DNA of 58,766 bases from an uncultured Synergistia bacterium (GCA_964425005.1 CAYRKT010000002.1:1-58766); one strand, 5' to 3'; shown: positions 9,129-58,766, numbered from the stretch's first letter. Numbers and translations are program-made. The notes: generated from the sequence alone by a model not told the origin.

Positions 9129-10534
9129 TCCACCCCCAGCCTCCCCAACAACTCCTCGAACCTGCAAGACCTGGAGGCCTTGAAGGCCACCGCGCTCCCC
9201 GGAGGGAAGCGCTTCAACAGGTCAGATGGGACCCGATCCCCGTCCGGGTAGAGATCCAGGAAGGCCCCCCTCGGTACCCCCGAGGCGGAAAAGCCCTCCG
9301 AGAACGCCTCTCCCTCGGGGCCCACGAAGACCGCGCCGTCCACCACAAGCCCGGCCTCGAACCCCAGCTCCCTGTGGAAAACCTCGCGCCCTTCCCCCAG
9401 CTCCTTCATGCTGCCGAAGACGACGAAGACCGAAAGCCCCCTATCGTCCTTCAGCTCCCTCAGGAAGGCGAGCAACGCCCTGGCGGACTCGGGGTTGGCG
9501 TTGTAGAAGTCCTCGATCAGCAGCAGGTCGCCTGCCTTCCTGGGCCTTACGCGCATCTCGGGTGGTTCTGCGCCCTCGAGGGAGGCCAAGACCTCCTCGA
9601 AGTCGAAGCCCAGGTTCACCATCGCCGAGGCCGCCAGGGCCACGTTGATGGCGTTGTGGGCGCCCACCAACCGGGTTGATATCCTCCCCCTCCTCCCCGA
9701 GGCCACCTCCTCGAGATCCACCCACAGGCACAGGTCGTCCCCCATGCCCGTCCCGAGAACCCTCACGTGGTCGCCCCAGGCTCCCACGGAGCAGCGCCTG
9801 AAACTCCCATGGGGAACCCCCCGGGCCAACCTCTCGTCGTCGCCGTTGAAGGAAACCCAACCGCCCTCCCTCAAACCCTCCAGGATCTCGAGCTTCGCGC
9901 GAAGGACCCCATCCAGGTCGCCCAGGGCCTCCAGGTGAGCTGGCGCGACCTTGACCAGAACAGCTCCGTCGAGGGGGAAGAGCTCGACCATCCTCCTGAT
10001 CTCCCCGAAACCGCTGGTGCCGAGCTCCAGCACCAGGACGTCCAGCGGAGCTGGAGCGGAGAGCACGGCCAGGGAGATCCCCACCTCCGTGTTGTAGCTG
10101 CGAGGGGTGTGGAAGGCCCTGCACAGGCGCGAAAGCCCCTCGCCCAGGACCTTTTTGGTGGTGGACTTGCCGACGCTTCCGGTGATCCCCACCACCCCGA
10201 AGGGCTTGAGAGAGCCCAGGAGGTATCGCCTGGCGGCCCATATCAGGGACTTGAGGACGTCGGGCACCCTGATCAAGAGAACCTCTGAGAGCCCCTCGGG
10301 CTCGACGGGGAGGCGAAAGCCCTCCTGGACAACCAGGACCTTCGCCCCCCTACTCGCCGCGTCCCCCACGAACAGGTGTCCGTCGCTCCTGCTGCCCCGA
10401 AGGGCGAAGAAACAGGAGTTCGGCCCAGCCATGCGGCTGTCCACCACGAAGGAGGATATCTCCACGTCGAGGAAGGGGCCCTCGACCCTGGAGGGCGCAA
10501 GGAGCTCGATCAGCTCAGACGACCTCAAGGCCAA
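9125..10534 (-). CDS. murF: UDP-N-acetylmuramoyl-tripeptide--D-Ala-D-Ala ligase
   Basis: DSR, DGH, GITGSVGKSTTK, YNTEVG, DFYNANPES, MKELG, KASR. Confidence 0.96.
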   Translation of the reverse strand: MALRSSELIELLAPSRVEGPFLDVEISSFVVDSRMAGPNSCFFALRGSRSDGHLFVGDAASRGAKVLVVQEGFRLPVEPEGLSEVLLIRVPDVLKSLIWAARRYLLGSLKPFGVVGITGSVGKSTTKKVLGEGLSRLCRAFHTPRSYNTEVGISLAVLSAPAPLDVLVLELGTSGFGEIRRMVELFPLDGAVLVKVAPAHLEALGDLDGVLRAKLEILEGLREGGWVSFNGDDERLARGVPHGSFRRCSVGAWGDHVRVLGTGMGDDLCLWVDLEEVASGRRGRISTRLVGAHNAINVALAASAMVNLGFDFEEVLASLEGAEPPEMRVRPRKAGDLLLIEDFYNANPESARALLAFLRELKDDRGLSVFVVFGSMKELGEGREVFHRELGFEAGLVVDGAVFVGPEGEAFSEGFSASGVPRGAFLDLYPDGDRVPSDLLKRFPPGSAVAFKASRSCRFEELLGRLGVE

Positions 10535-12026
10535 GTCCCTCCTCCTCCAGGACCTCCCTCAGGGCCCTCTCCTCGTTGTAGGGCAGGTGCTCGTCCCCGA
10601 CTATCATGTAGCTCTCAGGCCCCTTGCCGGCCAGGAGCAGGACGTCCCCATCCCTGCTGAACCTCACGGCCCGCCTGATGGCCTCCTTCCTGTCTATCTC
10701 TATGGCGTACCTGCCCTGTCCGCCACCCGCCACGACCCCCGCCTCTATGTGCCTCGCTATCTCCATGGGGTCGTCGAATCGAGGGTTGTCCATCGTGATC
10801 ACCACGAAGTCGCACCTCTCGGCGGCGAGCTTGCCCATCTCCCAGGCGTTCCTGAGGTACCTGTCGCCGCCGAAGCCGAACAGGGCCACGAGCCTGCCGC
10901 CCTCTCCCATTGCCTCCCTGGCCGCCGATATGAGCTTCTCCAGCGCGTCCGGGGAGTGGGCGTAGTCTATCACAGCCCAGGCACCGTTGGAGAGCCTCCT
11001 CACCTCCACCCTGCCCGGCACCCTCCTGAGCTCCCTTATGCCCCGCAGGGCCTCTTCCACCGAGAAGCCAAGCCCCCTGGCCAGCGCGTAGGCCGTGAGG
11101 GCGTTGTAGACGTTGTACCTACCTATCATGGGGACCAGGAGCTGGCCGGCGAGGCACCCCCCCTCGAACACCTGCGCCCTCGCCCCCCTCATGTCCACTC
11201 CTTCGACGGCCGCGAAGAAATCCGCCGACGGGTCGAGCAGGGAGAGGGAAAAGGAGGGAAGACCGGCCCTCCTGAGCTCCGAAGACAACCTAGAACCCCA
11301 CTCGTCGTCGACGTTGACCACCCTGACGCCCCCGGGAGCAGTGTAGTCGAAGAACAAGGACCTCTTGGCCTGATAGTAGCCCTCCATCGTCCCGTGGAAG
11401 TCCAGGTGTTCGGGCGTCAGGTTGGTGAAGGCGGAGGCCTCGAAGCTCACGTCCACCAACCTGTCCATCTGGAGCCCATGGGAGGAGGCCTCCATGACGA
11501 AGAAGGTGCACCCCCGATCGACGGCCCTCCTCATCCACCCCTGGACCTCCCAGGACTCGGGCGTCGTCCTGTCCGCCTCCACCTCCTCCTCTCCGTCGGA
11601 GTAGACGACCGTGCCCATGAGCCCTACCTTAAAGCCCAACCCCACGAGGATCGACCTGAGCATGAAGGTGGTGGTGGTCTTCCCGTTGGTCCCCGTGATC
11701 CCGACCACCCTCAGGGCCCTGGACGGACGCCCGCACAGGATGGAGCTCACCCTTCCCATGAACCTGCGCGGGTTCGTCACCACCACCTGAGGCACCCCGT
11801 GCTCCAGAGGTCTTTCCACCACAAGGGCGACGGCGCCACGCTCGAGGGCATCATCGGCCAACTCGTGTCCGTCGAACCTGGCCCCCCTCACGCACACGTA
11901 CATGTAACCCCGCCTCACCTGTGAGGTGTGGTTGGTCACCCCGGTCAACTCCACGTCCGCATCCCCTATCAGTTCAAAGCTTTCTCCTTCCTCCCGCAAG
12001 ACCCTCAGGACGTCGAGGAGCTTCAC
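10515..12026 (-). CDS. murE: UDP-N-acetylmuramoyl-dipeptide--diamino acid ligase (DNPR motif, meso-DAP type)
   Basis: GITGTNGKTT, TTPES, MEASSHG, HLDFH, DYAHSPD, GGDR, DNPR, LAGKG. Start GTG 12026 overlaps the ftsI stop. Confidence 0.96.
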   Translation of the reverse strand: MKLLDVLRVLREEGESFELIGDADVELTGVTNHTSQVRRGYMYVCVRGARFDGHELADDALERGAVALVVERPLEHGVPQVVVTNPRRFMGRVSSILCGRPSRALRVVGITGTNGKTTTTFMLRSILVGLGFKVGLMGTVVYSDGEEEVEADRTTPESWEVQGWMRRAVDRGCTFFVMEASSHGLQMDRLVDVSFEASAFTNLTPEHLDFHGTMEGYYQAKRSLFFDYTAPGGVRVVNVDDEWGSRLSSELRRAGLPSFSLSLLDPSADFFAAVEGVDMRGARAQVFEGGCLAGQLLVPMIGRYNVYNALTAYALARGLGFSVEEALRGIRELRRVPGRVEVRRLSNGAWAVIDYAHSPDALEKLISAAREAMGEGGRLVALFGFGGDRYLRNAWEMGKLAAERCDFVVITMDNPRFDDPMEIARHIEAGVVAGGGQGRYAIEIDRKEAIRRAVRFSRDGDVLLLAGKGPESYMIVGDEHLPYNEERALREVLEEEGLGLEVV

Positions 12027-13735
12027 GGCGAGCTCAAACCCCCTTCGAACCTGGCCACCTCTCTGACGACCCTCGAGAAGAGCGGAGCCACGATCTCGCT
12101 GGCCAGCACGATCCCGCCCCTGGGCCTCCCCATCACGAGCAGGAGCAGATGTCTGGGCTCCTCCGCTGGCCAAAACCCGACAAAGGATATCACATATCTA
12201 TCGGTATATCTACCCTCCTCAGCTATCTGCGCCGTGCCCGTCTTCCCGCCCACCTCCAGGCCCTCCACGGCGGCCTTCCGCGCCGTGCCTACCTGCACGA
12301 CCCTCCTGAGCATCCTCCTCAGCTCGGCGGAGACCTCGGGACTTATGACCTGTCTCCTCTCCATGGGCGCTGGCGAGAACCTCTCCTCCCCGAGGACACC
12401 CTCCACCACCCTGGGCCTCACCAGGAAGCCCCCGTTCACCAGGGCGCAGTAAGCAGCGGCTAGCTGAACGGGCGTGACCGCGAACCCATGGCCTATGCCC
12501 ACCAGGGCCCTGGTCGCCCCGAACCACTCCCTGAAGGGCGGAAGCAAGCCCACCTCCTCGCCGGGCAGCTCCACGCCCGTCCTGGACCCGAAGCCGAAGG
12601 CCCTAAGGTACTCGTACACCCACCTGTCCTCAACCCTCAGCCTGGCCTCGATAGCCCCCGCGTTGCACGAATACATCAACACCTCCTCCAGCGAGACCCG
12701 ACCGTGGGAGTGGATGCACCTTATCCTGGTCCCGGCGTACTCGTAGTAGCCAGGGCAGTAGAAGCTCTCCCTCCCGGAGAGCTTGCCCAGCTCAAGGCCT
12801 ATAGCCGCCACCAGCGGCTTCACCGTAGAGCCGGGCTCGTAGACCCGCGATACGGCGTTGTTCCTCCTGTGCTCAGGGGGGAAATCCCACCAGCTGTTGG
12901 GATCGAAGGAGGGATAGCTGGCCATAGCGAGTATCCTGCCGTCGACGGCGCTCATCAGGATCCCCGCCCCCCACTCGGCACCGTTGGAGGAGCAGGCCTC
13001 CGACAGCTCCTTGTCGAGGAAGTGCTGATACCTGAAGTCCAGGGTCAGCTGCAGCCCCCTTCCCCCTAGACCCCCCGCGTCGGGGGGGCTCGCCAGGGCC
13101 CTCCCGACGATCCGGCCCCTCGCGTCCCTGAGGAGCTTGTAGAGGTAAACCCTGGAGGACAGGAACGAGTCCCACTCGAACTCCAGGCCCTCGAGCCCCT
13201 GGTCGTCCAGGCCGCAAAACCCCAGCACATGCGCCCCCACCGGGCCGAAGGGGTAGAAGCGCTTGCGCTCCTCCATCACGTAAAGGCCCCTGACGTCGGC
13301 CGAGAGCACCGCCGAGGCCAGGGACTGATCCACCCTCCTCTTGATCCATACGAACTTCCTCCCCTCCCTCCTGGCCTCGTCGATCGCCCTGAGGGCCTCT
13401 TCCCCGAAGGCGGACCTGAACCACTGAGCGCCCGCCGGGTCGAGCTGGACCTCGCCGGGGACCGCATACACGCTGGGGGATGGGACGCTGGAGGCCACGA
13501 CCAAGCCGTTCCTGTCGAAAATGAAACCCCTGTCGCTCCTCAAGGCCACCCTGCTCCAGTACTGGCCCTTGAGGGCCTCCTCTATCCTGGGGTCAGGTCT
13601 CAGATGCAGGGAGAGGCACCTGAGGAATATCGAGAAGAACAGGAGCCCGCAGAGCGAGAGCAAAACCCCGAAGCGAAACTTGGAGCCCTCGGAGGCCAGG
13701 CCCTCCGCAGAGCCGCCTCCCCAGGGAAGAGGCAC
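12023..13735 (-). CDS. ftsI: Class B penicillin-binding protein FtsI/PBP2b
   Basis: RGFIFDRNG, RFYP, GLEGLE, SxxK (STVK), SxN (SCN), KTG (KTGT); no PASTA domain. Confidence 0.94.
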   Translation of the reverse strand: MPLPWGGGSAEGLASEGSKFRFGVLLSLCGLLFFSIFLRCLSLHLRPDPRIEEALKGQYWSRVALRSDRGFIFDRNGLVVASSVPSPSVYAVPGEVQLDPAGAQWFRSAFGEEALRAIDEARREGRKFVWIKRRVDQSLASAVLSADVRGLYVMEERKRFYPFGPVGAHVLGFCGLDDQGLEGLEFEWDSFLSSRVYLYKLLRDARGRIVGRALASPPDAGGLGGRGLQLTLDFRYQHFLDKELSEACSSNGAEWGAGILMSAVDGRILAMASYPSFDPNSWWDFPPEHRRNNAVSRVYEPGSTVKPLVAAIGLELGKLSGRESFYCPGYYEYAGTRIRCIHSHGRVSLEEVLMYSCNAGAIEARLRVEDRWVYEYLRAFGFGSRTGVELPGEEVGLLPPFREWFGATRALVGIGHGFAVTPVQLAAAYCALVNGGFLVRPRVVEGVLGEERFSPAPMERRQVISPEVSAELRRMLRRVVQVGTARKAAVEGLEVGGKTGTAQIAEEGRYTDRYVISFVGFWPAEEPRHLLLLVMGRPRGGIVLASEIVAPLFSRVVREVARFEGGLSSP

Positions 13736-49740: not shown

Positions 49741-50322
49741 TCAGACGTGGATCGATCCCGAAGCCTTAACCCTCGCCTCCGAGGCCAGGCGCTCGATCTC
49801 CTCCAGGGAGCGGCGAAGGAGGGACAGGACCTCCGGGTGATCGTAGAGTTCGTCCCCCAACTCTTCCCTGATCTCGGAGGTGTCCAAGACGAACTCCTCC
49901 GAGTCGACGCGCCGAACGAACCTGAAGTCCACGTCCCTGTGGGCGCATATGCCCACCATCAGGGTGGAGACCAGATCCCCAAGGGGAGGCCTGTCCACGT
50001 GATCGAGGGAGAAACGAGCCCGCACCTCCGTCCCCTCGCCGGGCCTGGAGTTGAGTTCGAAGCTTCCGGCGCAGTGCTCCGCCGAGGCCCTGAGCAGAGG
50101 AAGGCCAAGGCCTACCCCTATCCTCTTCTTCCTCCCGGTGTAAAAGGGGTCCAAGGCCTTACAGGCCTCCTCCTCCGACATCCCGCAGCCGTCGTCCTTG
50201 ACGGCTATCTCCAGGTAGCCGGAACTGTGGTCCTCGAAGACCTCCACGGTTATGCGCTTAGCCCCAGCGGAGGCGCTGTTCTCTATGAGGTCCAGCACGT
50301 GCATGGACAGGTCCCTCATCAT
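49741..50322 (-). CDS. HATPase_c (histidine-kinase-like ATPase) of the hydrogenase-associated type
   Basis: MHVLDLIENS, DDGCGM, DPFYT, GLGLPL, RPPLGDL; no HisKA or receiver domain. Confidence 0.85.
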   Translation of the reverse strand: MMRDLSMHVLDLIENSASAGAKRITVEVFEDHSSGYLEIAVKDDGCGMSEEEACKALDPFYTGRKKRIGVGLGLPLLRASAEHCAGSFELNSRPGEGTEVRARFSLDHVDRPPLGDLVSTLMVGICAHRDVDFRFVRRVDSEEFVLDTSEIREELGDELYDHPEVLSLLRRSLEEIERLASEARVKASGSIHV

Positions 50323-50344
50323 CAAGGCGGAGACCACCCCCGCT

Positions 50345-50698
50345 CTAGGACCTAAGCCCCCTTATCCCCATGGAGTAGAGCCTTCCCACCGCCTCGAAAG
50401 CGGGAAGCGGCGTCCTTATGAGGGTGAGCCCCCTCTCCCTGGCCTTCTCCACCACCGAGGGCTCCACAGAGGCGCCGTCGGCCACCACCAGCGCGGAGGC
50501 CTCCACCAGCAACGCCACAGCCACGGCGTTTATGTGGCTCTGCACGGTGACCCACAAGACGCCGGGAGCACCCCTCTTCATCACGTCGCTCATGAGGTCC
50601 GAGGCTATGCCGTAGGAGACCTCGACGGAGCCCTCTTCGCCACCGGCCAGGACCTCCCCCTCTAAGGCCCTCAACAACTCGGTCAGCTCGAGCTTCAA
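50345..50698 (-). CDS. DRTGG-domain protein
   Basis: SDLMSDV, WVTVQSHINAVAVA, AFEAVGRLY. Confidence 0.85.
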   Translation of the reverse strand: MKLELTELLRALEGEVLAGGEEGSVEVSYGIASDLMSDVMKRGAPGVLWVTVQSHINAVAVALLVEASALVVADGASVEPSVVEKARERGLTLIRTPLPAFEAVGRLYSMGIRGLRS

Positions 50699-50716
50699 AC
50701 CGACACCCCCATGGAC

Positions 50717-52039
50717 CTACTTCTCGAGCGGAAGCTTTATCATCTCCAGTATCTCCCTCGTCAGATCGCCCACCCTGCGCCTCTGCTCGTAGACGCAGTC
50801 GGTGACCTTGCCCTGTCCTCTCACCACGTCCTCCGCCAGCGCCCTGCAGGAGGGCCTCCCGCAGAAGCCGCAGTTTATCCCGGGCAACCTGTCGTGGACT
50901 ATCTGGAGCTGGTGGAGCTTCTCCATCGACTCCCGGAGGTCCGAGGACAGAGGCAGCCTCGGCCTGGCCCGGATGGGAAACTCCAGCGAGGTGAAACCCC
51001 TGGCGTGGAGCTCCTCCAGGAGGGATAACCTCTCCTCGGAGGGATTCCAGTCGGGCACCCGGTGGGGCACGGTCTGGGAGGCTATGAAGCGAGACTCACC
51101 CGCGAGTATCCCCCCCACGCACCCCTTGTCGCAGACCCTGCCCTCCACGTAGTCGACCCCTCTGAGCTTGCCCAGCTCCACCTCCTCCACCACCTCCATC
51201 ACGTTCCTCATCCCCGAGACCACCACCGCCCTGAAGGGCTCCCCGTTGCCGAAGATCCTCCAGAACATGGAGAGGTGGTCGGACTCACCCCCCAGCACCG
51301 CCCACCTGATCCACCGGGAGAAGTCGGAGGACGGGAGGCTGTCGCCGACGCTGGGCCTCTTGGCCAGGTTCACTATATCCCTGTAGACCCAGTTCATCCC
51401 CACCGCGTAAGACATGTGGCTGGCCCTTCTGCCCTCCGGATACTTGGCCATGCCGATCTTCGCCGGGCAGGGGGAGACGAAGACGAAGGGCTTCCCTCCC
51501 ACCCCCCTGGACTCCGAGAGGGCAGCGGCCACCTCTAGGGGATTCTCCACCGGAGTGAGCCTGGAGACCAACGAGGGATACTTGACCTGGACCAGCCTCA
51601 AGACGGCGGGACAGTAGACGGATATCATCGGCCTGGACTCCCTCGGAACGCTCAGGACGTGCTTCACCGTGGCGAAGGCCACCAGATCATAGGCTATCTC
51701 CATCTCCTCTATCAAGTCCTTGTAGCCCAGGGCGCCCATCAAGGAGGAGACCTCCCTGGGGTCCTGGAGGTGGGCGAACTGGGTGTACATCACGGGATCG
51801 CAGATCAGCACTCTGTCGGAGGTGCTGTTCCTCAGTATCTCCCACTCGTCCTCCTCCACCGCTATGAAGTCAGAACAAACCCTCTTGCACTCCCCGCAGT
51901 TTATGCACAGCTCGGGGATGATCTTCAAAAACCCGCTGTACCACCTCATGGCCTCGGTGGGACAGGCCTTTATGCAGTTTATCCCCTCCTTGCAGTACTT
52001 GCCCACAGGCCTAATCACGACACCGTGTCTGTCGGTCAA
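50717..52039 (-). CDS. [FeFe]-hydrogenase-like Fe-S protein (ferredoxin + degenerate H-domain + C-terminal FeS domain), likely sensory
   Basis: C..G..C...CP and CINCGEC...C; P1 SVYCPA, P2 SPCPAK, P3 EGRVCDKGCVGG; LPGINCGFCGRPSC...C. Confidence 0.8.
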   Translation of the reverse strand: MTDRHGVVIRPVGKYCKEGINCIKACPTEAMRWYSGFLKIIPELCINCGECKRVCSDFIAVEEDEWEILRNSTSDRVLICDPVMYTQFAHLQDPREVSSLMGALGYKDLIEEMEIAYDLVAFATVKHVLSVPRESRPMISVYCPAVLRLVQVKYPSLVSRLTPVENPLEVAAALSESRGVGGKPFVFVSPCPAKIGMAKYPEGRRASHMSYAVGMNWVYRDIVNLAKRPSVGDSLPSSDFSRWIRWAVLGGESDHLSMFWRIFGNGEPFRAVVVSGMRNVMEVVEEVELGKLRGVDYVEGRVCDKGCVGGILAGESRFIASQTVPHRVPDWNPSEERLSLLEELHARGFTSLEFPIRARPRLPLSSDLRESMEKLHQLQIVHDRLPGINCGFCGRPSCRALAEDVVRGQGKVTDCVYEQRRRVGDLTREILEMIKLPLEK

Positions 52040-52054
52040 AGCGACCTAACCCCC

Positions 52055-52498
52055 CTACCCCTCCATAATCCTGACCGAGGCCCAGAGCTTCGTCCCCCGG
52101 CCGACCTCGCTCTCGATGCGCATCTCGTCGGAGTTCTTCTTTATGTTGGGAAGGCCCATCCCCGCCCCGAACCCCAGCTCCCTTATGTGGTCGGGCGCCG
52201 TGGAGTACCCCTCCTTCATGGCCAGCTCTATGTCCTCTATGCCCGGGCCGTCGTCCTCAGCCAGTATAACTATCTCGTCAGGGTAGACCAAAGCCTTCAA
52301 GGTCCCTCCCCCCGCGTGGATCACCAGGTTCATCTCCGCCTCGTAGGCTATGACGGCAACCCGCCGGTATATCTCCGGCGAGAGGCCCAGCATCTTGAGG
52401 ACTTCCTTTATCTGGGTGGAGGCGAGTCCAGCGCCGACGAAATCCCCACCCTTGACGTCGAACTCCACGGAGTAGACCAGCTTCTTGGAGGAGGACAT
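52055..52498 (-). CDS. RsbT-like anti-sigma Ser/Thr kinase (HATPase_c)
   Basis: YEAEMNLVIHAGGG, DDGPGIEDIELAMKEGYST, GAGMGLPN. Confidence 0.9.
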   Translation of the reverse strand: MSSSKKLVYSVEFDVKGGDFVGAGLASTQIKEVLKMLGLSPEIYRRVAVIAYEAEMNLVIHAGGGTLKALVYPDEIVILAEDDGPGIEDIELAMKEGYSTAPDHIRELGFGAGMGLPNIKKNSDEMRIESEVGRGTKLWASVRIMEG

Positions 52499-52510
52499 GC
52501 CCTTTAAGAG

Positions 52511-52879
52511 CTAAAACACCCTATCCCTGCACACCAAGCAGGGCGAAAGCCCCTCGGCGTAGAGCCTTCCACACGCCTCGAACATGGTCATGGGCGTGAG
52601 GAGCAAGGGCACGCCCAGAGCGGAAGCCGACCTCACCACGTCCTCCGAGGGGACCTTACCCCTCACGAACAGGACGGCGGGCACGTCCAGCATGTGCACA
52701 GTCCTCATCAGCTGGATGTGCGTGAGGCCGGTTATCAACAGGGTTCCAGCGCAGGCGAAGGCCAGGATGTCGCTCAGCAGGTCACAGGCGTAGGCGTTGG
52801 GGACAGCTATGGAATCCAGCTTGTCCTCGCAACACAGCACCTTGGCCCCTACCAATTCCCTCACCGTAGAGAGCAACAA
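52511..52879 (-). CDS. DRTGG-domain protein
   Basis: CDLLSDIL, LITGL, FVRGK, MFEACGRLY. Confidence 0.87.
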   Translation of the reverse strand: MLLSTVRELVGAKVLCCEDKLDSIAVPNAYACDLLSDILAFACAGTLLITGLTHIQLMRTVHMLDVPAVLFVRGKVPSEDVVRSASALGVPLLLTPMTMFEACGRLYAEGLSPCLVCRDRVF

Positions 52880-53030: not shown

Positions 53031-53059
53031 TTGACTGGGCCTCTCGGGGCGGATAAAAT
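53031..53059 (+). promoter_or_regulatory. sigma70-type promoter of the T-box/lysW operon
   Basis: TTGACT-17 bp-TAAAAT. Confidence 0.85.
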
Positions 53060-53084
53060 CCTCTCACGAAAGCCGAACAAGCCC

Positions 53085-53337
53085 GGCGATGACCGAGGGA
53101 GGGTCTTTCCCAGAAGCCCAACAGAGAGGGGGCTCCACCGGCTGAGAGGGCCCCTGGGGTGGGGGTTAGATCCAAAGCCCTCGCGAGCCTCGGCCGAAAG
53201 GGTTCTCCCGGAGTAGGCCGCGGGGGGCTCCCGTTAAAGGGCCGACGAGGGGAAGAGGGGGGACGCAAGGGTTTCTTCTCTTCCACTAGGGTGGTACCGC
53301 GGGCCGAAAGCTCGTCCCTAGAGGGACGAGCTTTTTT
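53085..53337 (+). ncRNA. T-box riboswitch (transcriptional), probable Lys (AAA) specifier
   Basis: K-turn GGC-GAU-GA/GA-GCC, AG bulge CAGAGAG, GCUGAG distal loop, stem II with GAA/AGUA S-turn, CCGUUA box, stem III, AGGGUGGUACCGCG (53288-53301), terminator. Confidence 0.92.
53310..53337 (+). terminator. T-box attenuator terminator
   Basis: GCTCGTCCC-TAGA-GGGACGAGC-TTTTTT; its 5' strand is shared with the antiterminator. Confidence 0.9.
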
Positions 53338-53378
53338 GTTTAGGTCGACCCAGCGCGAGGAGGTGTTCTGAGGTGGAG

Positions 53379-53555
53379 ATGACGAGGATCGAGGCGATGT
53401 GCGAGGTGTGTGGAGGGGAACTGGAGATCGGGTCCGGCGTGGAGCTGGGCGAGATAGTGGTATGCTCCGACTGCGGGACGGAGCTGGAGGTGGTCTCGTT
53501 GGATCCTGTGGTCCTGGAGAGGGCCCCCGAGGTCCAGGAGGACTGGGGGGAGTAA
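53379..53555 (+). CDS. lysW: Amino-group carrier protein LysW
   Basis: CEVC...CSDC zinc ribbon, GEIV.C..CG.ELEV, acidic, C-terminal EDWGE. Confidence 0.96.
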   Translation: MTRIEAMCEVCGGELEIGSGVELGEIVVCSDCGTELEVVSLDPVVLERAPEVQEDWGE

Positions 53556-53561
53556 GGGGGC

Positions 53562-54410
53562 ATGAGGCCCTCGCTGGTGGTCCTAAACGACGTCTTCTCC
53601 TTCGAGACCAGGCTGCTCCTGGAGGCAGCCGACTCGGTCGGCGTGAGCTGCAGGACCGTGGAGGTCTCCTCGGGCCTCTGGTTCGACCAGCTGGACCCCG
53701 CGCTTCCCTGTTGGAACCTCATCTCGTCGCCGGTGGCCAGGGCTGCGGTGTCCTCCTCCCTTCGCGGGCGAGGGCTTAAGCCCTTGAACCTCGCGTTAGC
53801 CGAAGGGAGCGCCGTCGACGTGGCCTCTACCCTGCACGACCTAAGCCTCGAGGGCCTCACCAGCGAGGTCTTCCTGCTCTTCCGCGAGCCCCAGGTCAAG
53901 GAGCTCATCGCCCAGGGGAGGTTGAGGTACCCCTTCTGGATAAGAGGGAGCAGGCGAGGGAGGGGGGACATCAGGACCCTGGTCAGGAGCGAGGCCGCCC
54001 TGGAGGCGGTGCTGGAGCACCGGGAACACCTGGTCGACGAGCCCTTCGTGGTCCAGGTCCACCCCGAGGCGGACGCCATGGCCAGGCTGACCATCATAGG
54101 GAGCAGGAGGTTCTGGAGCCAGGGGGCGATATCCCCCAGCGGCAGACATGCTCTAGCGCCGTGCGACGAGACGGAAGAGCTCTCCGACATCGCAGCGAGG
54201 TTGTGCCGATACCTGCGGGACAGGTTCGGGACCCCACTCTGGGCCCAGTTCGACCTGCTCATCTCGCGAGGAGGAAGGGGATTTTGGGTCTTCGACCTCT
54301 CGGATCTGCCCGAGCTGATGCCCCTAAAGGATAGGAGGGCTGAGCTGGTGGAGGCTCTGGCCTCGGTCGTCGAGGAGGTGATGGCCGATGGAGGAGGGCA
54401 AACCCTCTAA
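53562..54410 (+). CDS. Highly diverged LysX/RimK-like ATP-grasp protein (probable pseudo-enzyme)
   Basis: Position right after lysW; E.RLLLEAA..G, EAVLEHRE, FDL..S..G, PEL resemble LysX; the DK, KP..GSWG, NT.RG and EVN motifs are absent. Confidence 0.7.
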   Translation: MRPSLVVLNDVFSFETRLLLEAADSVGVSCRTVEVSSGLWFDQLDPALPCWNLISSPVARAAVSSSLRGRGLKPLNLALAEGSAVDVASTLHDLSLEGLTSEVFLLFREPQVKELIAQGRLRYPFWIRGSRRGRGDIRTLVRSEAALEAVLEHREHLVDEPFVVQVHPEADAMARLTIIGSRRFWSQGAISPSGRHALAPCDETEELSDIAARLCRYLRDRFGTPLWAQFDLLISRGGRGFWVFDLSDLPELMPLKDRRAELVEALASVVEEVMADGGGQTL

Positions 54411-54501
54411 ACGCTCGGTCAGCGCGTCGTCGAGGACGTTCGAGGGAGGGCCGGGACCAGGGCGTGCTGGTCCCTAGGGGGTCTTCTTGCGCCCTCGTCC
54501 C

Positions 54502-54536
54502 GGCCCGCAGGCTTCAGCTTGCGGGCCTCGTCTTTT
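54502..54536 (+). terminator. Possible intercistronic terminator/attenuator hairpin
   Basis: GGCCCGCAGGC-TTCA-GCTTGCGGGCC followed by TCGTCTTTT. Confidence 0.4.
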
Positions 54537-54551
54537 CGGAGGTGAGCGGGG

Positions 54552-55295
54552 TTGAACGAGGTGACCTTGGAGGGCGAGATAGTCGAGATAGGACCGGATC
54601 GCATAAGGGTCAGGGGCGTGGACATAGAGGAGCTCATAGAGGGCTGGAGCTACCCGGAGGTCTTTTGGTTTCTGCTCACCGGCAGGAGGCTGAGCTCGAG
54701 GGAGAGGAGGATGCTCGAGGCCATACTGGTGGCCATGTGCGACCACGGCCCAACGCCTCCCAGCACCCAGGCGGCCAGGCTCGTGGCCTCCACCGGCTCC
54801 CCCATGCACGCGGCCCTGGCGGCAGGGCTCTTGGGCTTCGGAGATCACCACGCCGGGGCCATAGAGCTGGCCATGAGGGTGCTCCAGGAGGCGGTGCGAT
54901 CTGCGGAGCTCGGCAGAGACGAGCTCAAAGGGACGGCGGAGAGGCTCGTGGAGGACTTCCTGGACAGAGGGGAAAGGGTGCCGGGCTTCGGACACAGGTA
55001 CCACAGGAGGGATCCCAGACCCCCTGCCCTGGTCAGGTTGGCCGAGAGGCTCTCCATGGTGGGACCCCACCTGAGGCTCGCCCTGGAGATGGAGGAGGTC
55101 CTCCTGTCCAGGAAGGGCATAAGGATGAACATCGACGGGGCGAGCGGGGCGATCCTGAGCGACATGGGGCTCTCGTGGCGCGTAGGCAGAGGGGTCTTCG
55201 CCCTGGGAAGGATGTCGGGCCTGATAGCGGAGGTTATGGTGGAGATATCGTGCTACAAGCCGTTCAGGAAGTTCCACGAGATAAAGGCCAGTTGA
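54552..55295 (+). CDS. Citrate synthase-fold protein (short citryl-CoA lyase / archaeal citrate synthase-like)
   Basis: 247 aa; DHGPTPPSTQAARL, GDHHAGAIE, PGFGH, DPR, MNIDG (His-His-Asp triad intact); TTG after SD GGAGGTG. Confidence 0.9.
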   Translation: MNEVTLEGEIVEIGPDRIRVRGVDIEELIEGWSYPEVFWFLLTGRRLSSRERRMLEAILVAMCDHGPTPPSTQAARLVASTGSPMHAALAAGLLGFGDHHAGAIELAMRVLQEAVRSAELGRDELKGTAERLVEDFLDRGERVPGFGHRYHRRDPRPPALVRLAERLSMVGPHLRLALEMEEVLLSRKGIRMNIDGASGAILSDMGLSWRVGRGVFALGRMSGLIAEVMVEISCYKPFRKFHEIKAS

Positions 55296-55315
55296 ACGAG
55301 GAGGTGCCAGGGAAC

Positions 55316-56344
55316 TTGAAGGTGGCTGTATTCGGAGCGTCCGGGTTCGTGGGAGGAGAGCTCTTGAGGCTCATAGCCCTCCATCCGCAGATGGAGCTCT
55401 CGGCGGCGTCCTCCAACACCTTCGCCGGGGAGATGGTCTGGACGAGGCACCCGCACCTCAGGCCCGTATACCCCTCCTTGAAGTTCTGCGCGCCCGAGGA
55501 GGCCATTGGAGCGGACTTCGACCTGGCCTTCCTGGCCCTGGAGCACGGGAGGTCCGCCGAGGTCGCGGGGAAGATCCACGACAGCGGCAGGCTCGTGGTG
55601 GATCTGAGCGCAGACCTCAGGCTCAAGGACCCCGAGGCCTACAGGAGGTGGTACGGCAGGAATCACCCAAGGCCGGACCTCCTCTCCAGGGCCGTCTACG
55701 GGCTTCCAGAGCTGCACCGCGAGGAGCTCAAGGGGGCGACTTTGGCCTCCGGGGTGGGCTGCAACGCCACCGCCGTGAACCTGGCGCTCAAGCCCCTCAA
55801 GGGCCTCCTTCGGGAGGTCGTGGCCGACGTGAGGGCTGGCTCTTCCGAGGGAGGAGCTCGTCCCAGCGAGGGCTCCCATCACCCCATAAGGAGCAGGGCC
55901 CTCAGGCTCTACTCCGTGGGGAAGCACAGGCACATGGCCGAGGTGTGCCAGGAGATGGAGCTCCCAGAGGAGGCTATATCCTTCTCCGTCACGGCGGTGG
56001 AGCTGGTGAGGGGGGTTCAGGCGGTGGTCAGGTGCAGGCTGAGCGAGCGCCTGACCGAGAAGGAGCTGTGGGGGCTCTTCAGGAACGCCTACAAGGGAAG
56101 CCCCTTCGTCTCCCTGTGCCCCGCCAACCCACCCCACCTACGACTGCCGGACCCCAGGTGGGTCACGGGCAGCAACCACGCCATGATAGGCTTCGTCCAG
56201 GAGGGGGAAGATCGGGTGGTGGTGGTCTCGGTGCTGGACAACCTCGTCAAGGGCTCCGCCGGGACGGCCGTGGCCTGCGCCAACCTGATGGTGGGCCTGC
56301 CGGAGGAGACCGGCCTGAACCAAAGCCCCATATTCCCTGTATGA
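55316..56344 (+). CDS. lysY: [LysW]-aminoadipyl/glutamyl-phosphate reductase (LysY/ArgC family)
   Basis: GASGFVGGELLRL, DLSADLR, AVYGLPE, GCNAT, GSSEGG, DNLVKGSAG; TTG 55316 after SD GAGGAGGTG. Confidence 0.92.
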   Translation: MKVAVFGASGFVGGELLRLIALHPQMELSAASSNTFAGEMVWTRHPHLRPVYPSLKFCAPEEAIGADFDLAFLALEHGRSAEVAGKIHDSGRLVVDLSADLRLKDPEAYRRWYGRNHPRPDLLSRAVYGLPELHREELKGATLASGVGCNATAVNLALKPLKGLLREVVADVRAGSSEGGARPSEGSHHPIRSRALRLYSVGKHRHMAEVCQEMELPEEAISFSVTAVELVRGVQAVVRCRLSERLTEKELWGLFRNAYKGSPFVSLCPANPPHLRLPDPRWVTGSNHAMIGFVQEGEDRVVVVSVLDNLVKGSAGTAVACANLMVGLPEETGLNQSPIFPV

Positions 56345-56352
56345 AGGAGGCG

Positions 56353-57168
56353 ATGGGGGTGCTGGTGGTCAAGATAGGCGGGGGAAGGGGGAACAGGCTG
56401 GACGAGCTCTGCAAGGAGGTCAAAGCCCTCTGGGAAGAGGGCGAGAGGCTGGTGCTGGTCCACGGGGTGAGCGACGCCATGGACGCCCGCTCGGCGGAGC
56501 TCGGCCTGGAGCCCAGGTACCTCGTGAGCCCCAGCGGGTTCAGGAGCAGGTTCGTCGGGGAGAGGGAGAGGGACGTCTACCTGGGCGTTTGCCTCGAGGT
56601 CGGCGCGAGGATCTGCTCCACCCTGCACGCCATGGGGGTCAGGGCCGTCGCCCTCTGGGGAGGTAGCGGAGCCCTCGCCGAGGGAGAGAGGAAGGAGGCG
56701 CTCCGCTACGTGGAGAACGGCAAGGTCAAGGTGGCCAAGGGCAACTGGAGCGGGGTGGTGAGGTCCGTGAACGCCAGGGTGATCGAGGTCCTGCTGGAGG
56801 GGGGCTTTCTGCCGGTGGTCTCCCCCGTGGCCGTGACGCCGGAGGGATTGCCCCTCAACGTGGACGGCGACAGGATGGCAGCGGCCATCGCCTCGGCCCT
56901 GAGGGCCGAGGCCCTGGTGATCCTCTCCAACGTCCCCGGGCTCCTGGAGCGCCTGGAAGACCCAGGGAGCCTGGTCAGGAGGATACCCTTCGAGGACCTG
57001 GAGGACTACGACGGCCTCGCCAAGGGGAACATGAAGAGAAAGCTATTGGCCGCGAGGGAGGCCTTGGAGGGCGGGGTGGAGAAGGTGATCATCTCGGACA
57101 GCAGGGTGGAAAGACCGATAGGGTCCGCCCTGGCGGGAGGTGGGACCTGGATATGTCGAGCTTTCTAG
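56353..57168 (+). CDS. lysZ: [LysW]-aminoadipate/glutamate kinase (LysZ/ArgB family)
   Basis: VVKIGG, LVHG, SPSGFRSR, NVDGDRMAA, LSNVPGLL, GNMKRKL. Confidence 0.92.
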   Translation: MGVLVVKIGGGRGNRLDELCKEVKALWEEGERLVLVHGVSDAMDARSAELGLEPRYLVSPSGFRSRFVGERERDVYLGVCLEVGARICSTLHAMGVRAVALWGGSGALAEGERKEALRYVENGKVKVAKGNWSGVVRSVNARVIEVLLEGGFLPVVSPVAVTPEGLPLNVDGDRMAAAIASALRAEALVILSNVPGLLERLEDPGSLVRRIPFEDLEDYDGLAKGNMKRKLLAAREALEGGVEKVIISDSRVERPIGSALAGGGTWICRAF

Positions 57169-58325
57169 ATATAGAATCGCGCTTCGGACCCGGCATAACC
57201 GCCACCAGGGAGGTCTGCCTGGTGAGGGGAGAGGGGTCGTGGGCCTTCGACGAGTCCGGGAGAAGGTACCTGGACTTCAGCATGGCCCACGGATCGGTGG
57301 CCCTAGGACACGCCCATCCAGCCGTGGCATCGGCGATGAAGAGGGCGCTCGAGGAGGGGATCTTGAACTGCGGGATGGGCTTCTCCTCCCCCTTCAGGGC
57401 CAGGTTGCTCGAGAGGCTTTGTCAGGGTCTGGGAGGCAAGTTCCGGGGCTTTCTCGCCAACTCGGGCGCGGAGGCGATAGAGACCGCCATAAAGCTGTGC
57501 GCCCTAAAGAGGCCCGGCAGGAAGAGGTTCGTGGCCCTCAGGAGGTCCTTCCACGGCAGGACCCTGGGGGCTTCGTCCCTTACCTTCAACCCCAACTACA
57601 AGAGGGGGTTGGAGCACCTCCTGCTCGAGGTGGACTTCATCAGACCCATCGAGGAGGACCTGGACAGGGTCGACGAGGGGGTGGCCGCGGTCTTCGTAGA
57701 GCCGGTCCAGGGGGAGGGCGGCGTATATCCCCTGCCCCCCGACTTCCTCAGGGCCCTCAGGTCCCGCTGCGACGAGGTGGGTTCCCTGCTGGTGGCCGAC
57801 GAGGTCCAGTGCGGCTTCTTCAGGTGCGGTTCTCTGGCCCTGTCCGTCGAGGACGGCATATCCCCCCACGTGGTCTGCCTGGCCAAGGGGATGGCGAACG
57901 GCATCCCCATAGGGGCGTGCCTGTGGAGGGAGGAGCTAGGCCCCCTACCCCCCAAGGTCCACGGGACCACCTACGGCGGAAACCCGCTGGTCTGCGCCGT
58001 GGCCCTCGCCGTACTGGACGTAGTCGAGGAGGAGCGCCTGGGCGAAAGGGCCACCAGGATGGGGCGAGGGCTCATCTCCCTGATCGAGGAGGCCAGGCAC
58101 CCCCGCGTCAAGGAGGTAAGGGGGAGAGGACTCCTGGTTGGGGTGGAGCTCACAGGGCCAGTCGCGGAGGAGGTGGTCAGATCCCTCCAGGGGAAGGGAG
58201 TCCTGGCGCTCACCACCTCCAACAGGTCGGTGGTTAGGTTCATGCCGTCCCTCCTGGTCTCCGAGGAGGAGCTCGAGCTCGCCGCCTCCGCCCTGCTCAG
58301 CGCCCTCGACGAGTTGGAGCGATGA
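57153..58325 (+). CDS. lysJ: [LysW]-aminoadipate-semialdehyde transaminase (LysJ/ArgD, class III PLP)
   Basis: YLDF, LGHAHP, NSGAEAIE, SFHGRT, EPVQGEGG, DEVQ, LAKG, HGTTYGGNP. Confidence 0.92.
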   Translation: MSSFLDIESRFGPGITATREVCLVRGEGSWAFDESGRRYLDFSMAHGSVALGHAHPAVASAMKRALEEGILNCGMGFSSPFRARLLERLCQGLGGKFRGFLANSGAEAIETAIKLCALKRPGRKRFVALRRSFHGRTLGASSLTFNPNYKRGLEHLLLEVDFIRPIEEDLDRVDEGVAAVFVEPVQGEGGVYPLPPDFLRALRSRCDEVGSLLVADEVQCGFFRCGSLALSVEDGISPHVVCLAKGMANGIPIGACLWREELGPLPPKVHGTTYGGNPLVCAVALAVLDVVEEERLGERATRMGRGLISLIEEARHPRVKEVRGRGLLVGVELTGPVAEEVVRSLQGKGVLALTTSNRSVVRFMPSLLVSEEELELAASALLSALDELER

Positions 58326-58766
58326 GGCCCACAGGCCCCTTCGAAGCAGAGGCCGTAGAGCTCCTGAAGGCCCTGGTGGAGACGGAAAGCCCCACCGGCC
58401 GCGAGGACGAGGCCGTAGGGCTCTTCGTCGAGGCGGCCAGGTCCATGGGGCTTGAGGCCGGCAGGGACGAGGCGGGAAACGGCGTGGCCGCAAAGGGCGA
58501 AGGAGGAAGGCGCATCTACCTGGTAGGCCACATAGACACGGTCCCGGGGAGCATACCCGTGAGGATCGAGGGAGGGGAGCTCTGGGGGAGGGGAAGCGTG
58601 GACGCCAAGGGGGCGCTGGCGGCCATGCTGGTGGCCCTCGCGAGGGCCAGCCTGAGGCCAGGCCTGGAGGTGCGCCTGTTCGCCTGCGTCGACGAGGAGG
58701 GAAGGAGCAGGGGGGCAAGGCACCTCCTGGGGTCCGCGCCGGAGCCAGAGGGGGTCGTGGTGGGAG
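58322..58766 (+). CDS. lysK: [LysW]-lysine/ornithine hydrolase LysK (M20 family), truncated by window end
   Basis: ATG 58322 overlaps the lysJ stop; SPTGRE, GHIDTVPG, LWGRGSVDAKG, DEEG. Not in the ORF track because it has no stop in the window. Confidence 0.9.
   Translation, partial: MRPTGPFEAEAVELLKALVETESPTGREDEAVGLFVEAARSMGLEAGRDEAGNGVAAKGEGGRRIYLVGHIDTVPGSIPVRIEGGELWGRGSVDAKGALAAMLVALARASLRPGLEVRLFACVDEEGRSRGARHLLGSAPEPEGVVVG

Follow-up and report, generated by a model that had tools for sequence, protein, structure and literature searches.

The 3′ end of a 58,766-nucleotide (nt) stretch of DNA from an uncultured Synergistia bacterium (GCA_964425005.1 CAYRKT010000002.1:1-58766, the whole of which we call the window) carries, in this order on the plus strand, a promoter-like site, a T-box leader, the carrier gene lysW, an open reading frame (ORF) of 282 amino acids (aa) that we call ORF2, a spacer, a gene for a protein with the citrate synthase fold, lysY, lysZ, lysJ and the 5′ part of lysK (Table 1). 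Gaps and overlaps of 4–13 nt between the genes downstream of lysJ identify the locus as a single 13-gene operon of ~11 kb for lysine synthesis via the alpha-aminoadipate/LysW route, a known pathway altered here by two real oddities: an entry-enzyme candidate not homologous to the usual one, and a ligase that is conserved yet apparently dead. The LysJ protein of the window is found on eleven public contigs, six of which were compared with the window and proved, over the overlap, to be 100% identical in two cases and 99.93–99.98% identical in four. Identical contigs occur in the samples JGI 3300022541 and 3300009585 and SRR27730015-19. Two contigs (L002 and L003, 99.93% identical to the window; loci named L### are contigs or genomic regions retrieved for comparison with it) reach beyond the window end and reveal the 3′ part of the operon, namely the rest of lysK (359 aa when complete), an HD-domain gene, two pairs of aconitase-type genes and an Iso_dh-family dehydrogenase gene, followed by a convergent selB and then selA. 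All 13 operon ORFs are intact across seven independent assemblies. Judged from best hits only, the nearest relatives of the operon genes are those of Synergistota, so that the operon can be described as Synergistota-like.

Table 1. Features of the lysine operon and its surroundings (positions in the window unless a contig is named; bit scores are followed by the score required by the model).
Feature	Position	Strand	Size	Remarks
Promoter candidate, sigma-70-like	53031..53059	+		TTGACT-17-TAAAAT; consensus match only, 10/12 positions; just 5′ of the leader
T-box leader	53080..53335	+		RF00230, model match 53080-53322; terminator hairpin 53306-53335, then T run
lysW	53373..53555	+	60 aa	Amino-group carrier protein; zinc ribbon, two CxxC pairs, C-terminal EDWGE
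ORF2	53562..54410	+	282 aa	LysX-derived, probable pseudoenzyme; no ATP-grasp catalytic motifs
Spacer hairpins	54451..54537	+	141 nt (spacer)	Between ORF2 and the citrate-synthase-fold gene; two GC-rich hairpins, of which the 3′ one (54502-54527) resembles a terminator stem and has a T-rich tail
Citrate-synthase-fold gene	54552..55295	+	247 aa	Citryl-CoA lyase family; TTG start; proposed condensing enzyme
lysY	55316..56344	+		[LysW]-aminoadipyl-phosphate reductase, ArgC family; TIGR01850 338.7 bits (233.6)
lysZ	56341..57168	+		[LysW]-aminoadipate kinase; NF010659 285 bits (223)
lysJ	57153..58325	+		Class-III aminotransferase, ArgD/LysJ type; PF00202 296 bits
lysK, 5′ part	58322..58766	+	148 codons	[LysW]-lysine hydrolase, M20 family; NF003367 150 bits on 148 aa
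HD/HDIG-domain gene	L002 12246-12794		182 aa	Shortly past the window end; after lysK and before pair 1
Aconitase-type pair 1 (AcnL1/S1)	L002/L003		424 + 171 aa	After the HD gene
Aconitase-type pair 2 (AcnL2/S2)	L002/L003		419 + 170 aa	After pair 1
Iso_dh-family dehydrogenase gene	L002/L003		349 aa	Last operon gene, after pair 2
HATPase_c, DRTGG, sensory [FeFe]-hydrogenase-like module (Fe_hyd_lg_C + FeS)	49741-52879	-		Divergent neighbour of the lysine operon
MurE with DNPR motif	10515-12173	-		Motif comparison

A sequence-only reading of the window had proposed an intact carrier with four intact downstream enzymes, an embedded gene of the citrate synthase fold, T-box control and a continuation of the operon past the window end, all of which our analysis bears out. 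By their family matches, LysW, LysY, LysZ, LysJ and LysK are all canonical. LysW passes both models available for it (TIGR01206, 76.5 bits for 53.2 required; PF21344, 65.6 bits for 27, E = 3e-18), and its gene shows a ratio of nonsynonymous to synonymous substitution rates (dN/dS) of 0.03 in the comparison with L093, a locus whose ORF2 is 81% identical to that of the window. The LysJ and ArgD models give 270–320 bits on the lysJ product, under their equivalog cut-offs, and an alternative start of lysY at 55292 would overlap the stop codon of the citrate-synthase-fold gene.

The leader matches the T-box model RF00230 along its full length (model positions 1–219) with 65.7 bits and an E-value of 7e-14 over 901 nt, the gathering score of 93 not being reached. 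It carries the T-box sequence AGGGUGGUACCGCG, a UGGN bulge, a Stem I with K-turn, a specifier loop and a competing terminator. T-box leaders also stand 5′ of lysW in L011 (7549-7835), L013 (1984-2224), L051 (3014-3249) and L057 (5661-5896). Folding of Stem I places the sequence AAAG on the 3′ side of the specifier loop, directly before the lower helix, and AAA followed by a purine occupies the same helix junction in all five leaders. This common AAA plus purine, together with the UGGU bulge, rules out the specifiers CCA (Pro) and CAA (Gln). The UGGU bulge calls for a tRNA whose discriminator base is A, as is the case for tRNA-Lys; with its AAA specifier, the leader is thus a predicted lysine-specific T-box, more than the sequence-only reading had claimed, by which the operon is switched on when tRNA-Lys is uncharged. 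The presence of such a leader on LysW clusters of the Synergistota type settles that they serve lysine rather than arginine synthesis. The more usual control of lysine-biosynthesis operons is the lysine riboswitch. The T-box leaders of the Synergistota lineages score 50–72 bits, below the Rfam gathering threshold, so that routine annotation would overlook them. Promoter-like sites of the kind found just upstream were three in number, for 0.2 expected in shuffled sequences.

The first oddity, the citrate-synthase-fold gene, encodes a clear member of its superfamily (PF00285, E = 2.5e-43) that passes the model NF004866 ‘citryl-coenzyme A (CoA) lyase’ (PRK06224) with 289 bits for 245 required. 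Its best relative of solved structure is the Hydrogenobacter citryl-CoA lyase (6HXP, E = 1e-48). The catalytic His100, His148 and Asp195 and the substrate arginines Arg156, Arg220 and Arg239 are invariant across the family, and the N-terminal part of the gene shows a dN/dS of 0.075 in the comparison with L093. At least two more lineages have the gene at this same place, between lysX and lysY. In L066, from an uncultured Synergistaceae, a homologue of 47% identity lies at the contig start directly upstream of lysY-Z-J-K; in L174 a canonical lysX is followed by a terminator-like hairpin, an ORF of 49 aa and a citrate-synthase-fold gene of 48% identity, with lysY-Z-J-K behind it, and the LysX of this locus has every motif and scores 256 bits on its C-terminal half. 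A metagenome scan with an alignment of the citrate-synthase-fold proteins recovered mostly loci of the methanogen type and none with lys genes. These methanogen homologues, from Methanobacteriales and other methanogens, are ~50% identical to the window protein and are preceded, ~2 kb upstream, by a PrpD-family dehydratase gene in 30 of the 44 loci with enough flank (L094–L173). In L010 (2784-6843) and in these 30 loci, the citrate-synthase-fold homologue belongs to a conserved cluster that also comprises a PrpD-family gene, an unassigned 299-aa gene and a gene of the class-I fumarase/tartrate-dehydratase alpha type, which suggests an uncharacterised hydroxy-tricarboxylate pathway.

The tail of the operon provides most of what the head lacks. 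The two aconitase-type large subunits pass the aconitase/isopropylmalate-dehydratase/homoaconitase model NF001614 (403 and 510 bits for 385 required) and the small subunits the LeuD/HacB-type model TIGR02087 (130 and 184 bits for 109); both pairs are LeuCD/homoaconitase-type iron–sulphur (Fe-S) hydro-lyases whose substrate is predicted from the family only. The loop GKYT-YTVKDP of AcnS2 is also found in the lys-cluster small subunits of L076 and L083, and AcnS1 is divergent at this place (NRYL-HLIRPE). The dehydrogenase, a Pfam Iso_dh match, is nearest to the isopropylmalate/homoisocitrate group (TIGR02088, 305 bits for a cut-off of 409.8) and scores about equally on isocitrate and homoisocitrate models. 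There is no HMGL/LeuA-type gene among the 13 genes of the operon, no homocitrate synthase in the 58.7-kb window (tblastn with the L077 enzyme, TIGR02146 445 bits, as query; E 1e-3), and no canonical LysX in either. The sequence-only reading had found the usual aminoadipate-supply genes wanting at the operon head and had allowed that a canonical lysX and a full set of homocitrate synthase, aconitase and dehydrogenase might follow just downstream. The absence of the condensing enzyme extends to the whole operon and window, and that of the other supply genes does not hold, since the homoaconitase-type pairs and the dehydrogenase-type gene lie at the tail; downstream, accordingly, the aconitase pairs and the dehydrogenase are present, and a LeuA-type synthase and a canonical LysX are not.

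Other lys clusters are built differently. Scanning GTDB with an alignment of LysZ recovered at least 80 loci (the window's species and the genome of L011 were not among the matches listed), and the following comparisons hold among those matches. Where supply genes are clustered, a homocitrate synthase of the TIGR02146 type directly precedes one aconitase pair (L049, L076, L083, L030, L084 and L077), usually together with a dehydrogenase (L049, L076 and L077), and in Chloroflexota, Deinococcota and others the supply genes adjoin lysWXYZJK or lie inside it. Compared with these usual clusters, the window operon has the citrate-synthase-fold enzyme for the LeuA-type homocitrate synthase, two aconitase-type pairs for one, and one dehydrogenase, as do most of them, this gene being absent in some loci. 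It also has one extra gene for none: the HD-domain gene has no counterpart in any other surveyed lys cluster. LysX is canonical in all the other surveyed LysW loci in which the region is visible.

The second oddity is ORF2, which occupies the position of lysX. It has no Pfam match and scores only 17.1 bits on the RimK family model TIGR00768 (143.4 required). A word-index search found two close relatives, with 98% and 81% identity (the latter L093), a full profile search with HMMER, run against 1.84 billion representative proteins, returned its own cluster only, and a sequence search of the PDB gave noise only. Nevertheless, ORF2 is collinear over 226 aa with the canonical LysX of Dethiosulfovibrio (BLASTP E = 2e-6, 22% identity), and its alignment with 32 LysX sequences from related loci reaches an hhalign probability of 94.6% over 250 columns. 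Remote homology, the same length and the same slot after lysW all mark it as a descendant of LysX. On a local hidden Markov model (HMM) made from the 32 sequences it obtains only 17 bits, the match being restricted to the N-terminal and central domains; its C-terminal catalytic half has no similarity to LysX detectable with this HMM. The LysX motif v-l-K-P-v-v-G-S-W-G-R has become W-I-R-G-S-R-R-G-R-G-D and Q-E-Y has become Q-V-H, the segment H-W-I-T-N-T-A-R-G-G is absent, and the E-x-N strand of the magnesium ligands (D...E-x-N) is not alignable, the candidate Asp245 alone being kept. An AlphaFold2 model built from a three-sequence alignment was unusable (predicted local distance difference test score 43). 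A 314-aa antisense ORF on the minus strand (53318-54262; third-position GC content 0.87) overlies lysW and ORF2; we rejected it as a shadow ORF, as its third codon positions coincide with theirs.

ORF2 is no dead pseudogene. It is intact, its GC content at the three codon positions (0.64/0.47/0.86) is of the coding type, as in its neighbours, and its dN/dS in the comparison with L093 is 0.21, so that of the ‘pseudo-lysX’ of the sequence-only reading the loss of the ATP-grasp motifs stands and the decay of the gene does not. A more distant relative, L011 (LysZ 53% identical, same selB/selA synteny), has the order T-box-lysW-X-lysYZJK, and its X protein scores only 87 bits on the LysX HMM. Neither the ATP-binding lysine nor the glycine loop is left in this protein, and the HWITNTARGG segment and E-x-N ligands are missing as well. 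The maintenance of a degenerate LysX under selection across this deep split is the behaviour of a pseudoenzyme, and ORF2 is probably a LysX-derived pseudoenzyme under purifying selection. The two odd features are independent of each other, since L174 combines the citrate-synthase-fold gene with a canonical LysX, and in L011 LysX is dead and no citrate-synthase-fold gene is present. It is doubtful that ORF2 still loads LysW, without need of any other ligase, through a heavily remodelled ATP-grasp site. The purifying selection, the tight coupling to lysW (a 6-nt gap and a Shine-Dalgarno site), the charged positions kept in altered form (Lys replaced by Arg128, the Arg/Gly-rich loop, Trp185 and Asp245) and the lack of a second LysX in the window would agree with such activity, but the C-terminal catalytic half shows no detectable similarity to LysX, the magnesium-ligand, QEY and HWITNTARGG motifs are gone, the sister lineage L011 lacks even the ATP-binding lysine and the glycine loop, and ORF2 changes faster than its neighbours by a factor of three to seven. 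Judging from gene context, the simplest answer would be an active LysX/ArgX paralogue that loads LysW and whose gene lies in another part of the genome. Tandem LysX paralogues are seen in lys clusters of other phyla (L053 6000-7675, L075 5982-7657 and L081 6004-7679), one copy being ~29% and the other ~39% identical to the Dethiosulfovibrio LysX, which indicates that duplication and divergence of LysX are common.

The hairpins of the spacer are also kept in L093 (1084-1224), where the T run is better, and analogous hairpins lie 5′ of the citrate-synthase-fold gene in L174 (about 600-690) and L066 (27-68). A terminator-like hairpin with a T run thus precedes this gene in every lineage that has it; in the clusters devoid of it (L011 and L012), lysX abuts lysY. 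No Rfam family matched the spacer hairpins or the leader of L174. The spacer hairpin could be a partial terminator setting a high carrier-to-enzyme ratio, or an unrecognised leader. L174 (692-841) and L066 (about 119-289) also contain a small conserved ORF of 49–56 aa ending in ...HLGRDGEWW*, which is absent in the window; in both loci the stop codon of this ORF and the ATG with which the citrate-synthase-fold gene starts overlap (ATGGTGGTGA). The ORF is free of lysine codons and is therefore not a lysine attenuator peptide.

From gene context we infer that a different entry chemistry to the C6 acid, together with an active ligase encoded elsewhere, is the best reading of the operon. The Claisen step is missing, the citryl-CoA lyase family carries out this type of chemistry on oxaloacetate, and the gene is co-regulated by lysine starvation and recurs with lysYZJK; on these grounds we tentatively propose that the citrate-synthase-fold enzyme is the condensing enzyme of the pathway and that the extra aconitase-type pair handles its product, a proposal to which we give somewhat less than an even chance. 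For a gene embedded in a biosynthetic operon the condensing direction is to be expected, probably on 2-oxoglutarate. The enzyme would thus condense acetyl-CoA and 2-oxoglutarate to homocitrate or homocitryl-CoA. The geometry of a si-citrate synthase applied to 2-oxoglutarate would give (S)-homocitrate, not (R)-homocitrate, and a lyase-type member might release the CoA ester. AcnL1/S1 would dehydrate this unusual product to cis-homoaconitate, from which AcnL2/S2 and the dehydrogenase would lead on to 2-oxoadipate. Just as the methylcitrate that PrpC produces depends on PrpD or AcnD for its further conversion, an unusual product would need a dedicated dehydratase, which would provide a role for the extra aconitase-type pair and with which the PrpD linkage of the methanogen homologues fits. 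An aminotransferase encoded outside the operon would make aminoadipate, to be loaded on LysW by the putative LysX/ArgX paralogue and carried to lysine by LysZ, LysY, LysJ and LysK. ORF2 would no longer ligate and would be kept for a non-catalytic role, most simply the binding of LysW. That all parts hold together, namely that in this Synergistota group the citrate-synthase-fold enzyme replaced the LeuA-type synthase, that its product is unlike (R)-homocitrate and is handled here by the second hydro-lyase pair, and that LysX is a conserved pseudoenzyme, is possible, with the chances leaning against the complete scenario.

Several points weigh against this proposal. The substrate of the citrate-synthase-fold enzyme is judged from gene context alone, and a search for a residue signature common to the three lys-linked proteins found none. 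In a rough neighbour-joining tree the lys-linked copies do not form one clade, and the closest relatives of the window copy, also from Synergistota and 60% identical, sit in non-lysine contexts, adjoining a PRK07475 Asp/Glu-racemase-like gene. This ‘hypothetical’ gene of the Asp/Glu-racemase superfamily lies 3′ of them in L008 (10805-11491) and L009 (10825-11511). The characterised member of the family cleaves citryl-CoA and releases no free acid, which leaves a thioesterase step unaccounted for, and no aconitase genes are found near the L066 and L174 operons. A LeuA-type synthase and an active LysX may lie outside the 58.7-kb window. Finally, the organism may not depend on the lysine operon: the DNPR motif of its MurE is typical of ligases that add meso-diaminopimelate, so that a diaminopimelate branch likely coexists with the aminoadipate route, the organism probably making meso-diaminopimelate for its wall while keeping the aminoadipate route to lysine.

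The main rival to a condensing enzyme specific to lysine would be that an ordinary small citrate synthase or citryl-CoA lyase supplies 2-oxoglutarate through AcnL1/S1 and a bifunctional dehydrogenase, a LeuA-type synthase being encoded elsewhere. Such an enzyme would agree with the catalytic residues and the arginines that bind oxaloacetate, which are the same throughout the family, its methanogen and Hydrogenobacter members included; a set of two aconitase-type pairs and one dehydrogenase suits two rounds in succession; and the near-equal scores of that dehydrogenase on the two models recall the bifunctional homoisocitrate/isocitrate dehydrogenases known in Thermus and Pyrococcus. We nonetheless consider this explanation unlikely, because the L066 and L174 copies of the citrate-synthase-fold gene have only lysYZJK joined to them, with no aconitase or dehydrogenase nearby, because other lys clusters hold a committed homocitrate synthase and no route for 2-oxoglutarate supply, and because amino-acid fermenters of the Synergistota can derive 2-oxoglutarate from glutamate. 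It is quite improbable that the gene merely travels with the operon and takes no part in lysine synthesis, or that the operon is decaying and non-functional. The terminator-like hairpin does set lysW-ORF2 apart from the downstream genes, the closest homologues do lie in unrelated contexts, and the MurE motif suggests a diaminopimelate route, but the ORFs are intact in every assembly and have strong family scores, the dN/dS at the N-terminus of the citrate-synthase-fold gene is 0.075, the insertion point is the same in L066 and L174, and the T-box is conserved. A new route of LysW loading, suggested by the sequence-only reading, in which the substrate is attached via a CoA ester by the citrate-synthase-fold enzyme, either unaided or together with the LysX-like protein, is very improbable despite the adjacency of the two odd genes to lysW and the missing ligase motifs, given the canonical LysX upstream of the gene in L174, the dead LysX without any such gene in L011, and the fact that citrate-synthase chemistry forms C–C bonds, not amides.

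The remainder of the window is ordinary chromosome, with a dcw cell-wall cluster, the RNase P RNA, V-type ATPase genes, ruvB, pan genes and a pur operon. It also holds the sensory [FeFe]-hydrogenase-like module that is the divergent neighbour of the lysine operon and, further upstream, a hybrid-cluster protein gene with an Rrf2 regulator.

To our knowledge, the 2-oxoacid chain elongations (those of leucine, of lysine via aminoadipate, of coenzyme B and of isoleucine via citramalate) all start with a synthase of the LeuA/HMGL fold, and we know the citrate synthase fold only for citrate and methylcitrate. A LeuA-fold enzyme is known to act as Re-citrate synthase; if our proposal is correct, a homocitrate synthase of the citrate synthase fold would be its mirror case, and the ‘citryl-CoA lyase’ family of Synergistota and methanogens, which is large and uncharacterised, would gain a function. 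A conserved dead LysX would be the first reported pseudoenzyme of the amino-group-carrier pathways and raises the question of what loads LysW. If instead the gene product is a small citrate synthase of the ordinary kind and LysX exists in active form elsewhere, the locus is an ordinary, oddly arranged lysine operon. A literature search on LysW in Synergistota, on citryl-CoA lyase with homocitrate and on the methanogen homologues found nothing relevant.

Among known systems, the pathway of Thermus thermophilus (hcs, hacAB, hicdh, lysW, lysX, lysZ, lysY, lysJ, lysK) shares with the window operon the EDWGE carrier and the kinase, reductase, aminotransferase and hydrolase families, as well as a homoaconitase-type pair and a beta-decarboxylating dehydrogenase within the same operon. 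The window operon differs by having a citryl-CoA-lyase-type gene and no LeuA-type synthase, a second aconitase-type pair, an HD gene, a degenerated LysX and lysine T-box control. Synergistota clusters, such as that of Dethiosulfovibrio peptidovorans, have the same lysW-lysX-lysY-lysZ-lysJ-lysK core in the same order, several of them with a lysine T-box, but their LysX is canonical and they contain no citrate-synthase-fold, HD, aconitase or dehydrogenase genes. The Hydrogenobacter thermophilus citryl-CoA lyase (6HXP) and the corresponding module of ATP-citrate lyase resemble the window protein in their short citrate synthase fold, devoid of the N-terminal part, with the His/His/Asp residues kept. 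In contrast, Arg239 of the window protein (motif FRK) is a serine in the Hydrogenobacter enzyme, and no citryl-CoA synthetase partner is visible at the window locus, as neither the operon nor the 58.7-kb window contains a succinyl-CoA-synthetase-like gene. The methylcitrate cycle (PrpC with PrpD or AcnD/PrpF, then aconitase) likewise combines a condensing enzyme of the citrate synthase family with an extra dehydratase; the likeness is an analogy only, as the extra dehydratase would here be a LeuCD-type Fe-S pair, not PrpD or AcnD, and the substrates would be C7 tricarboxylates. Lastly, the leader has the Stem I with K-turn, specifier loop, T-box sequence and terminator/antiterminator of the T-box family (RF00230), and differs from it in being GC-rich, in scoring under the gathering threshold and in bearing a predicted lysine specifier on a lysine-biosynthesis operon.

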